Shown here piece after piece: positions 49,856 through 52,809 of a stretch of DNA of 64,000 nucleotides. Source of the DNA: Candidatus Magasanikbacteria bacterium GW2011_GWA2_56_11 (GTDB taxonomy: Bacteria > Patescibacteriota > Patescibacteriia > Magasanikbacterales > UBA922); the NCBI GenBank assembly GCA_001004885.1, contig LCRX01000011.1:2000-65999 (forward strand), in the 5' to 3' direction. The notes under the pieces were generated by a model. That model ran no database searches, was not told the origin of the DNA, and was given only the letters and a program-made list of their open reading frames with translations. The stretch's first letter is position 1, and every line of letters starts with the position of its first letter. The translations under genes and the position numbers were made by a program.

Positions 49856-51904
49856 ATGTCCGTGTCAAAAAAAATTACTCTCCAGGTCGAGCGCCTGCGC
49901 GCGCAAATTGACGAGCTGCGCTACCGCTACCATGTCTTGAACGACCCCGAGGTAACCGACGCCATGTACGAGGGCCTTATGGCGGAGCTGCGAAAAATCG
50001 AGGAGCAGTATCCGGAGCTGGTAGTGCCGGATTCGCCCACCCAGCGCGTGGCCGGCAAGCCCTTGGACAAGTTCAGCAAAGTCGTCCACCAGGTACCCCA
50101 ATGGTCGTTTAACGACGCTTTTTCCGAAGCCGACCTGGCCGAGTGGCAGGAAAGGATTTTAAAGATTCTCGAAAAACAACTCGGCGCCCGGCCGCCGGAT
50201 TTGTCGTACGTGTGCGAACTGAAGATAGACGGCCTGCACATGGTTTTGACCTACGAAAAGGGGAAATTGAAAACGGCGGCCACGCGCGGCGACGGCCGGG
50301 TGGGGGAGGACGTAACCCAGAATATCAAAACTATCTGGTCGGTGCCGCTCACATTGAAAAAACCGGTGGACATCGTCGCCGAGGGCGAGGTCTGGATGAA
50401 GAGCAGTCTGCTCGCTAAAATTAACGAAGAGCGCAAAAAGGCTGGCGAGGTTTTGTTTGCCAATCCCAGGAACGCGGCGGCTGGAACCATCCGGCAGCTC
50501 GACGCGAAGATCGTAGCCGAACGCCGGCTTTCGCTCACTGCCTATGACATCTCGAGCGGCCCGGCGCCCGACACGCAGGCCGGGGAGCTGCGGGAACTCC
50601 AGTCGCTGGGGTTTAAAACCGATGAGAACTGGGAAGAGACCAAAACTCTGGCGGACATTATGCGATTTTACGACCGGTGGCGCCAAAACCGCAATACGCG
50701 CGAGTTCTGGATAGACGGTATTGTGATTAAGGTCAACCAAAAAAAATACCAGGACCAGCTCGGATTTACCGGCAAGGCGCCGCGTTGGGCGATAGCCCTC
50801 AAGTTTCCGGCCGAGCAGGGGACAACCAAAATCAAGGATATCTATGTCCAGGTCGGCCGCACCGGGGCTTTGACGCCGGTGGCGCTCATGGAGCCGGTAT
50901 CGCTCGCCGGCACGACCGTTACCCACGCCACGCTGCATAATTTCGACGAGATCCGCCGCCTAGACGTGCGCATCGGAGACAGCGTGGTCGTCGAGAAAGC
51001 CGGCGATATTATCCCCAAGGTGCTGCGCGTGCTCGACAAGCTGCGCGCCGGCGGCGAGAAAAAAGTGGCGGAGCCCAAGCGCTGCCCGGTGTGTCATTCG
51101 CCGGTGTCGCGCGTGCCGGTGGCGGATAAAAAGCAAACGGCCTCGGCCGGACTTTTTTGCGTCAATCCGGCCTGCTACGCGCAGGAGCTGGAGCGGATCA
51201 GGCATTTCGCGGCCAAAAACGCCTTTGACATTGACGGACTCGGCGAGAAGATAGTGGAGCAGCTGGTGGACGAGGGACTGATAAAAAATGCCGCGGACAT
51301 CTTCGGGCTTACGGCCGGCGACCTGGAATCGCTCGATCGGTTCGGAAAAAAATCGGCCGAAAATCTGGTGCAGGCGGTGGAAGCGGCCAAGGTTGTTACT
51401 TTGCCCCGGTTTATTTTTGCTCTCGGCATCCGGCACGTGGGCGAGGAAACTGCTGTCCGCCTGGCCGATCGTTTTCGCGACATCCGCCGGCTCATGGACG
51501 CCTCGCGCGAGGAGCTCGCGTCCGTGCCCGACGTGGGGCCGCGCGTCGCCGAATCCATCGCGGCATTTTTTGCCGACGAGCCCAATCGCCACTTGGTGGC
51601 CGAGCTGACAGCGGCCGGAGTGCGCATAAAAACCTCGAAACCAAAAGTTTCAAGCCAAAAACTGTCCGGAAAGACCTTCGTCTTGACCGGAACGCTGACG
51701 ACGATGACGCGCGACGAGGCCAAGGAGCGCATTCGGGAATTGGGCGGCGAAGTATCCGGGTCGGTGAGCAAAAAAACCGACTATCTGGTGGCCGGGGAAA
51801 ACCCGGGGAGCAAGTATGACCAGGCCAGGGCTCTGGGGGTGCGTATTTTAGATGAAAAACAGTTTTTGGCCCTCGTAAGGCCGGGCGGCCCGCAAGGGGC
51901 TTGA
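49856..51904 (+). CDS. ligA: NAD-dependent DNA ligase
   Basis: Adenylation motif KIDGL, OB fold, Zn finger (CPVCHS…C…C), HhH and BRCT. Confidence 0.9.
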
Positions 51905-51929
51905 CAAGCCCAGCCGTTTGTGCTATACT
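51901..51929 (+). promoter_or_regulatory. consensus sigma70 promoter TTGACA-17-TATACT at the ligA stop codon
   Basis: Perfect -35, 17-nt spacer and near-perfect -10 read directly. No protein gene follows for ~880 bp. Confidence 0.5.
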
Positions 51930-52194
51930 GCGTCGTTATAGTAATGAATATTTTCCGGCTTTTTAATAAGCCAAATATTCTCTATAACAGGGTCGTGAAT
52001 GGGAATACCCGATGAAGAAAGTCGCCTTTACGTGTTTAGTAGAGCCAAGTTTCTTCATCGGGGCTACAAAATCTTTTCATCCCTATCTCGCGACCCCTAA
52101 CCTCTCTTGGTGGACCGGCGGTTTACCTTCACAGCCCCGCCGTCGGTCCACCTTGCCCACCTTCAGGCCGTTTGTAAAAATGGATTGAAGATGA

Positions 52195-52227
52195 AAAACG
52201 ACCCTGTCCGGGTCGTTTTGATTTTGA
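52195..52227 (+). terminator. intrinsic terminator (aaaacgaccc-tgtcc-gggtcgtttt + T-rich tail)
   Basis: 10-bp GC-containing stem followed by ttttgattttg. Would end a ~295-nt transcript from the 51901 promoter. Confidence 0.45.
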
Positions 52228-52472
52228 TTGGGGAGGCGGATGTTCCACCTCCGTTTTGGCCCGAATTTCCGGGCCTTGGGGCCGCCGCCGTCGGCATCTG
52301 TCTGCGTATCCCCATTGAACACAGACAGACGTCCCCCGCGCCCTTCACGGCGGGTTGATTCCCCATTTTTCCGACGGCGGCGGCCCGAGCCTCGGCGCTC
52401 AGCGGCACTGGGTCGTAGTGCCGGAGCACACGAAGTCAACAGTATACTGCTCAGCAAGCGTGCGGTCAATAG

Positions 52473-52498
52473 AAAAACAGCCCTGCGGGGCTGTTTTT
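52473..52498. terminator. bidirectional hairpin aaaaacagccc-tgcg-gggctgttttt
   Basis: 11-bp stem with A/T-rich flanks, inside the gene-free region. Confidence 0.4.
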
Positions 52499-52809
52499 GT
52501 GGATGTGGGGGCGGTACCGATATGGGGGTACCGCGTCTCCTTGTGTTCCAGGCGTTGCCGCCGGCGTCGAGCCACCCCGAGGGGTGAAGTCAGCAGTCGA
52601 GCGGTGAGCGCTCGCGGCGGGACTGCTGAAAACAGTAGTTGCTGTGGCTCAAGACGCCGGCGGCGGCCTATGACCTCGGACAAAAAGGGGGGAGGGTAAC
52701 TTTTCTTTTTGGCCTTATTGGAACATCCGTAGTATAGCTCATCCGCCAGAGTTTGTAAAGCGCCCCGGCAGTTGAGTTTTCCGTCGCAGTTTAGTACAAT
52801 AACGGCACT

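Follow-up and report, generated by a model that had tools for sequence, protein, structure and literature searches.

Three candidate promoter-to-terminator noncoding RNA genes in the ligA–gatC spacer of a Candidatus Magasanikbacteria genome

The stretch of DNA analyzed here (hereafter the window; 64,000 nucleotides, contig LCRX01000011.1, positions 2,000 to 65,999) comes from Candidatus Magasanikbacteria bacterium GW2011_GWA2_56_11, a member of the Candidate Phyla Radiation (CPR, or Patescibacteria). It contains a 905-bp gene-free spacer (51905–52809) between ligA (49856–51904) and gatC (52810–53106), in which an earlier note, made from the letters of the DNA, had placed a candidate for one large noncoding RNA (ncRNA) locus. 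The longest open reading frame (ORF) within the spacer spans 128 amino acids. The seven longest ORFs gave no meaningful match in Pfam, and on five public metagenome contigs that carry the identical spacer, gene callers left it empty. We also considered and rejected a pseudogene or frameshifted gene: Pfam was empty on those seven ORFs, and a tblastn search with 132 ORFs from the spacers of relatives returned nothing real, leaving no remnant of the proteins that relatives encode at this site. The previous statement that no credible ORF separates the two genes is upheld by these searches, and neither Pfam nor tblastn revealed a frameshift-corrected ORF with protein homology, the result that the note had named as contrary to an RNA locus. 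At least five other contigs carry an identical spacer, and the sole close strain, whose GatC is 97% identical to that of the window, has one that is 99% identical; all remaining relatives in the GatC search share at most 68% identity. This GatC is found on Rifle-type aquifer contigs (groundwater CPR/Patescibacteria), and, among GTDB species representatives, LigA is matched best by metagenome-assembled genomes of Magasanikbacteria and Paceibacter, at no more than 69% identity.

The 2.5 kb around the spacer contain four sigma-70-like promoter sites, against 0.9 expected from shuffled sequence. The strongest lies on the plus strand at 51901–51929 (TTGACA-17-TATACT, an 11/12 match with a TG before the -10 box), and its TTGACA -35 hexamer includes the TGA stop codon of ligA. 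Two further sites are on the minus strand, at 52469–52441 (TTGACC-17-TATACT, 10/12) and 52759–52731 (TTTACA-17-TATACT, 10/12), the latter back-to-back with the fourth, a plus-strand site at 52772–52800 (TTGAGT-17-TACAAT, 9/12) that is followed by 9 nt and the gatC ATG. The first three sites have the -10 box TATACT in common, and over 37 nt the 51901 and 52759 promoter regions share 73% identity in inverted orientation. Across the window, 20 sites match at 10/12 or better, and 13 of them fall in the 15% of the window that is intergenic, one before tRNA-Lys; this concentration indicates that the promoter consensus is meaningful in this organism. Three of the 20 sit in the ligA–gatC spacer, serving no protein gene.

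Each of these three spacer promoters has a terminator hairpin in the matching direction 245–292 nt downstream. The first, T1 (52195–52219; AAAACGACCC-5 nt-GGGTCGTTTT), is a two-way intrinsic terminator common to the plus-strand transcripts and to the first minus-strand unit. The second, T2 (52473–52498; AAAAACAGCCC-4 nt-GGGCTGTTTTT), would end the other unit on the minus strand. Because each has an A-run on one side and a T-run on the other (left and right, respectively, at T1), both could act in either direction. The earlier note had correctly identified the promoter overlapping the ligA stop, an intrinsic terminator at 52195 (the T1 hairpin with its T-run) and the hairpin at 52473–52498, which is T2; all of the elements that it listed are real, and what it missed are the two minus-strand promoter-like sites, which are equally good, and the two-way nature of the terminators.

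From the plus-strand promoter, a predicted RNA of about 292 nt, which we call U1, would run from 51936 to about 52227 and end at T1, which upholds the earlier prediction of an RNA of about 295 nt between this promoter and the first terminator. Its predicted fold begins with an AU-rich 5′ hairpin (51936–51987), continues with a nested long hairpin (51990–52090, core 52008–52062) and a 13-bp hairpin (52109–52152), and finishes with a small hairpin and T1. Its minimum free energy (MFE) is -116.7 kcal/mol (z -8.6 against dinucleotide shuffles). A 13-bp stem reported at about 52013–52067 corresponds to the core of the long hairpin, which has 13 perfect base pairs; a second, reported at about 52100–52143, exists with its 13-nt stem, although it lies about 10 nt away, at 52109–52152. 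T1 is the first plus-strand terminator after ligA, and U1 and the ligA mRNA would have a common 3′ end. Because its promoter overlaps the ligA stop and its terminator is shared with ligA, U1 resembles 3′-end small RNAs such as DapZ and MicL, whose promoter lies within the upstream gene or at its end and whose terminator is also that of this gene. Unlike them, U1 is a predicted RNA, is long and lies wholly beyond the stop codon.

The two minus-strand units would fill the remainder of the spacer. U2 is predicted to run from 52434 to about 52190 (about 245 nt), ending at T1. A 5′ hairpin (52434–52391) is followed by a perfect 16-bp GC stem (52386–52279) that closes a bulged or three-way domain, then by two small hairpins (52275–52258 and 52252–52232) and the terminator (MFE -142.6 kcal/mol, z -10.0 against dinucleotide shuffles); no ORF of 12 or more amino acids ends inside it. 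U3 would extend from 52724 to about 52470 (about 255 nt), ending at T2, with a C-rich 5′ stretch, a long stem (52557–52668) enclosing two or three inner hairpins, a further hairpin at 52533–52510 and the terminator (MFE -115 kcal/mol, z -8.6 by the same measure). Its only ORF has 20 amino acids, and the long stem accounts for the hairpins that had been noted at about 52520–52640. U2 and U3 have the same architecture, with stems shifted in register. They align collinearly with z = 4.6 (none of 300 shuffles was as good), and matching motifs recur across them at a spacing of 276–283 nt, T1 and T2 among these at 279 nt. This alignment and the recurrent spacing identify the two predicted units as diverged tandem duplicates (paralogues). 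U1, by the same comparison with shuffles, shows weak similarity to U3 (z = 2.8) and none to U2.

Sibling small RNAs of bacteria, which are paralogous and arranged in tandem, include OmrA/B, PrrF1/2, AbcR1/2 and LhrC1-5; the theme has been reviewed (PMC4211561). U2 and U3 are like them in that two diverged duplicates lie side by side on one strand, and each copy has a promoter and an intrinsic terminator of its own. They are unlike the Hfq-type siblings in being two to three times longer (245–255 nt) and far more structured, and no conserved single-stranded seed, target, sequence relationship or Rfam relationship was found for them.

The description of the region as highly structured is well founded, since it folds far better than shuffled sequence. 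Against dinucleotide shuffles, the three units have fold z-scores from -8.6 to -10.3, and the 900 bp of the spacer hold four of the 22 most structured 150-nt segments among the 639 that cover the whole 64 kb. To assign strands, we scored each strand against its own dinucleotide shuffles, which gives a composition-corrected z. Raw free energies and G·U counts were dropped from this comparison as misleading, because strand composition biases the raw values. The strand defined by the promoter is favored in every unit: plus for U1 (-10.3 versus -7.5 on minus), and minus for U2 (-8.0 versus -5.8 on plus) and U3 (-8.7 versus -7.5 on plus).

We propose that the spacer holds three independent promoter-to-terminator ncRNA genes of about 250–290 nt, one forward and two reverse, and not one large RNA; judging from the sequence signals, we put the probability of this reading at roughly 0.55. 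All three units show the generic layout of a small RNA gene, that is, a sigma-70-type promoter and an intrinsic terminator around an ORF-free 50–400 nt. The single large locus of the earlier note is not supported, as the two minus-strand promoters and the terminators would split it into three, and the remaining 580 bp, where it had allowed for further structured RNA on the same strand, are better read as two minus-strand units. Each sigma-70-type promoter would drive 245–292 nt of very stable RNA up to a hairpin-plus-U-run terminator. U1 would start at the ligA stop and share its terminator with ligA, U2 would converge on U1 at the two-way T1, and U3 would diverge from the promoter of the probably leaderless gatC. 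Long closing stems and 5′ hairpins typically stabilize regulatory or protein-binding RNAs, and U1–U3, if transcribed as their signals suggest, may act as stable RNAs of either kind. They are most likely lineage-specific small RNA genes that match no known family.

Searches against known RNAs are consistent with that assignment. At the gathering scores of Rfam 15 (4227 covariance models, including those for RNase P, 6S, signal recognition particle (SRP) RNA, T-box, riboswitches, ribozymes and OLE/GOLLD/ROOL/HEARO/raiA), the whole window yielded three transfer RNAs (tRNAs) and nothing else. A local search of 1.4 kb with E up to 10 gave as its best match an unrelated archaeal snoRNA (E = 0.37; 22 bits versus a 46-bit threshold). 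ARAGORN, which looks for a tRNA-like domain combined with a tag-peptide frame, called no transfer-messenger RNA (tmRNA) in the window. No 6S model matched, and the predicted folds of U1–U3 consist of several hairpins, not the single rod of about 180 nt with a large central bubble that the paired 5′ and 3′ ends make in 6S RNA. These results agree with the previous statement that the region resembles none of tmRNA, RNase P RNA, SRP RNA, 6S RNA and T-box. Blastn and nhmmer comparisons of the spacer with 160 related CPR loci (80 ligA loci from GTDB genomes and 80 gatA loci from Joint Genome Institute metagenomes) detected no similarity. Searches of phage and plasmid collections were likewise negative, as were two pattern scans made on viral contigs. 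Neither the window nor 174 loci contained any part of the spacer a second time.

The close strain (L094) shows 0 differences from the window across 51452–52684. We gave this stretch no weight as a sign of purifying selection between strains, because divergence is patchy everywhere. Over 52685–52809, where U3 has its 5′ end and the back-to-back pair of promoters lies, the strains differ at 10 positions in 125 bp, with the promoter hexamers untouched; a C-run at 52685–52699 differs in length, and the 1.2 kb to the left of 52685 have no difference.

On its right-hand side, the RNA cluster is limited by the gatC promoter, whose geometry (TTGAGT-17-TACAAT-9 nt-ATG) recurs in a relative as TTGCGT-17-TACAAT-9 nt-ATG (L014). 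gatC is thus probably promoted separately, with a predicted leaderless mRNA, and this placement argues that the spacer is not a gatC leader. Throughout the window, Shine-Dalgarno motifs (GGAG, GAGG or GGAGG) occur in just 2–3 of the 47 gene upstream regions, and many genes have a -10-like box 6–9 nt before the ATG (for example 29740–29765, 43536–43560 and 52795–52810), which suggests that leaderless mRNAs may be widespread in this CPR lineage. The spacer between gatC and gatA (53107–53258) is nearly all one hairpin of about 130 nt, with a fold z of about -6 to -7 on either strand, and may serve processing or stability of the transcript between the two cistrons.

In relatives, the ligA–gatC spacer ranges from 3 to more than 2000 bp (median about 150 bp), and the longer spacers often hold inserted protein genes, as well as giant hairpins and a tRNA-like gene. 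The previous note had held that lack of conservation in related genomes would count against an RNA locus, and in part this applies: no homologous sequence was found there, whereas analogous units do occur at the same place. In eight relatives (L014, L025, L096, L116, L126, L128, L135 and L140), a consensus-like minus-strand promoter 25–150 bp upstream of gatC points away from it; downstream of this promoter come an ORF-free stretch that folds strongly (own-strand z -3.7 to -10) and a two-way terminator. These units typically begin with a long stem, in which the predicted 5′ end pairs with a segment just before the terminator. The gene upstream of the unit is not ligA in L096 and L135, so the unit goes with the divergent promoter of gatC. 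Two units stand in tandem in L116 and three in L128, and a few pairs of units from different relatives are homologous to each other. Between the members of these pairs we observed only a one-sided G-C to G-U change (L140/L128b) and one compensatory change (L116a/L128c). In Rfam searches of 28 of the relatives' loci, tRNAs were the only matches, and the units had none.

These analogues allow a wider proposal, that Magasanikbacteria-like CPR bacteria carry fast-evolving, stem-closed small RNAs upstream of, and divergent from, a leaderless gatCAB promoter, in one to three tandem units with their own promoters, of which only the architecture persists. U1–U3 would then be a GC-rich, enlarged version of an undescribed clade-specific class, possibly processed from arrays, in organisms where Shine-Dalgarno-based control of translation is almost absent. 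We offer this as a tentative suggestion and think it doubtful.

The same site holds other structured sequence in further relatives. In L111, a 92-nt tRNA-like gene (2395–2486, minus strand; 54 bits with the Rfam tRNA model, not called by ARAGORN) lies in the ligA–gatC spacer; inspection by eye shows a canonical anticodon loop, CU-UCU-AC (Arg, UCU), at the end of an anticodon arm that is about 11 bp longer. Single very long hairpins fill the spacer in L106 (2036–2225, with more than 30 paired positions by eye), L141 (2402–2606) and L144 (2068–2268), which have no minus-strand promoter there. Palindromic sequence in general seems to be drawn to the ligA–gatC site. Where contigs break or have N-gaps within the spacer (L006–L010, L092, L093, L007 and L094), this was considered as evidence of a repeat and rejected, as it fits assembly trouble at hairpins.

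Several observations weigh against the assignment of three ncRNA genes. U1 contains ORFs of 23, 33 and 58 amino acids. The strand preferences have small margins, notably that of U3, and, by raw MFE, the plus strand of the U3 region (-114.9) is more stable than the minus strand (-97.2). Since either strand can form the hairpins, they may act as DNA palindromes. The sole other copies of the spacer are identical or 99% identical, too alike to show covariation, and the 160 loci gave no homologue. The units of the relatives resemble U1–U3 in layout alone, which is no proof of a common family, and they favor the minus strand in just five of nine cases. We found no target, partner protein or conserved unpaired motif for U1–U3, and duplex folding of the units against gene starts was uninformative. 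A role for the C-rich loops in binding ribosome-binding sites, as in RsaE/RoxS, was dropped because of the scarcity of Shine-Dalgarno-like motifs in the window.

The alternative that survives best explains the stems as DNA-level palindromes, selfish or structural DNA similar to miniature inverted-repeat transposable elements (MITEs) or REP elements, that have gathered in a permissive intergenic hot spot; the promoters would be incidental or borne by the elements, and there would be no discrete functional RNA. REP, Correia and other MITE-type elements are intergenic palindromic repeats that can carry promoters and fold as RNA hairpins, and the spacer units are like them in being intergenic, with long inverted repeats around a short variable core. 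The highly variable length and inserts of the spacer among relatives would suit such an origin, as would stems that fold well on both strands and whose inverted repeats are long and perfect (16 bp in U2), in a genome that does carry a true four-copy hairpin repeat. That repeat also provides the contrast, in that it has four copies within the same 64 kb, whereas the units are single-copy in all sequence searched, the 174 loci included. The ends of the stems show no evident target-site duplication. Such an origin would also leave unexplained why three promoters are each well placed with respect to a terminator and why the strand preference is consistent, and we consider it unlikely.

The convergence of U1 and U2 raises the question of a type I toxin–antitoxin-like pair, in which U1 would be a structured mRNA for the 58-amino-acid peptide, with its start codon in the 13-bp stem, and U2 a convergent antisense RNA. 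Convergent RNAs that overlap at their 3′ ends are known from par (Fst) RNA I/RNA II of Enterococcus faecalis pAD1 and from txpA/RatA and bsrG/SR4 of Bacillus. U1 and U2 likewise converge on one two-way terminator, with about 35 nt of 3′ complementarity, and each has a copy of a 10-nt direct repeat near its 5′ end (51987–51996 and 52407–52416). The ORF (52012–52188) stops 7 nt short of T1, and the 52008–52062 hairpin would sequester its ATG. Unlike the toxins of those systems, however, the peptide is not convincingly hydrophobic: its best 15-residue hydropathy is 1.6, Glu and Pro lie in the middle, and there is no clean membrane-spanning helix. It has no Pfam match, and a search of 1.84 billion representative proteins brought up no true homologue; the sole reported match sums weak matches to a 65-residue repeat of a repeat protein and is artefactual. 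Outside the terminator, complementarity between U1 and U2 is at chance level (p ~0.07); among U1, U2 and U3, the longest perfect duplexes are 10, 11 and 7 nt, not above shuffles (p = 0.07, 0.03 and 0.93). U2 is as long as U1, unlike typical antitoxin RNAs, and U3 would have no place in the pair. We therefore judge such a pair improbable.

Part of the evidence could instead be read as one plus-strand gatCAB leader that starts at 51901 and senses Asn/Gln-tRNA, through a T-box-like element or a leader peptide, with T1 and T2 as regulated attenuators. The strongest promoter does point toward gatC, T1 and T2 can both work on the plus strand, the raw free energy of the U3 region favors that strand, and a sequence related to a terminator arm lies upstream (GGGTCGT at 51990 and 52210). 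Set against these points are the promoter that gatC has 9 nt from its own ATG, with a geometry kept in L014, the two well-formed minus-strand promoters that a leader would not explain, and the composition-corrected z-scores, which place U2 and U3 on the minus strand. A T-box leader has a Stem I with a specifier loop, and its T-box sequence sits in an antiterminator overlapping the terminator. Neither the T-box model (RF00230) nor any riboswitch matched the region even at E = 10; GGUGGACCGGCGG and GGGGGUACCGCG are only loosely T-box-like and lie 40–90 nt from any terminator. The 23-amino-acid ORF at 51944–52015 has six Asn codons, but these are a product of the AT-rich palindromic sequence in the 5′ hairpin (AATATT.../...AATATT), and this origin, together with the probably leaderless gatC, led us to rule out attenuation by an Asn-rich leader peptide. 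A gatCAB leader of any kind appears very improbable.

A highly divergent universal RNA (RNase P RNA, 6S, SRP or tmRNA) missed by the Rfam models can be dismissed as extremely improbable: CPR bacteria are divergent, and GAAGAAAGUCGCC in U1 is faintly like the RNase P motif GAGGAAAGUCCGG, but no family matched in the 1.4-kb search even at E = 10, ARAGORN found no tmRNA, there is no 6S-like rod with a central bubble and no matching 3′ strand for RNase P helix P4, and the region splits into three units of 245–292 nt on two strands.

Other elements of the window lie apart from the spacer. The four-copy repeat is about 150 bp long, and its copies are 87–92% identical, three in the same orientation (280–427, 5973–6121 and 25917–26063) and one inverted (18971–19118), with a partial copy at 31914–31956 in the tRNA-Lys leader. 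At its core is a hairpin of about 40 bp with near-perfect pairing, and two of the copies come directly after consensus promoters on the minus strand (467–438 and 26105–26076). The three full copies that have a downstream gene in the window are each upstream of, and co-oriented with, that gene (an FtsX-like permease, an unknown protein and superoxide dismutase). The repeat could be a MITE-like or promoter-proximal element. Divergent consensus promoters (plus strand, 63224–63253; minus strand, 63241–63213) occupy a 430-bp gap, where the sequence after the plus-strand promoter is structured, rich in C and free of long ORFs; this region (63224–63420) is possibly another small RNA unit. The segment 59890–60480 has a GC content well above the 50–60% of the window and folds no better than shuffles (z = 0.01). 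The tRNA-Ser gene is at 57353–57443, and a phage-type integrase lies just past the corresponding position in L001. Taken together, the high-GC stretch, the tRNA-Ser and this integrase suggest an integrated foreign element.

To our knowledge, almost no regulatory RNAs have been described for CPR/Patescibacteria, whose genomes are tiny. That a compact genome keeps 900 bp for three promoter-driven, very stable predicted RNAs suggests a function. If U1–U3 are not transcribed, the ligA–gatC site would be an example of a palindrome-collecting hot spot; if they are, they would provide an entry point to RNA-based regulation in a large uncultured group, the CPR.

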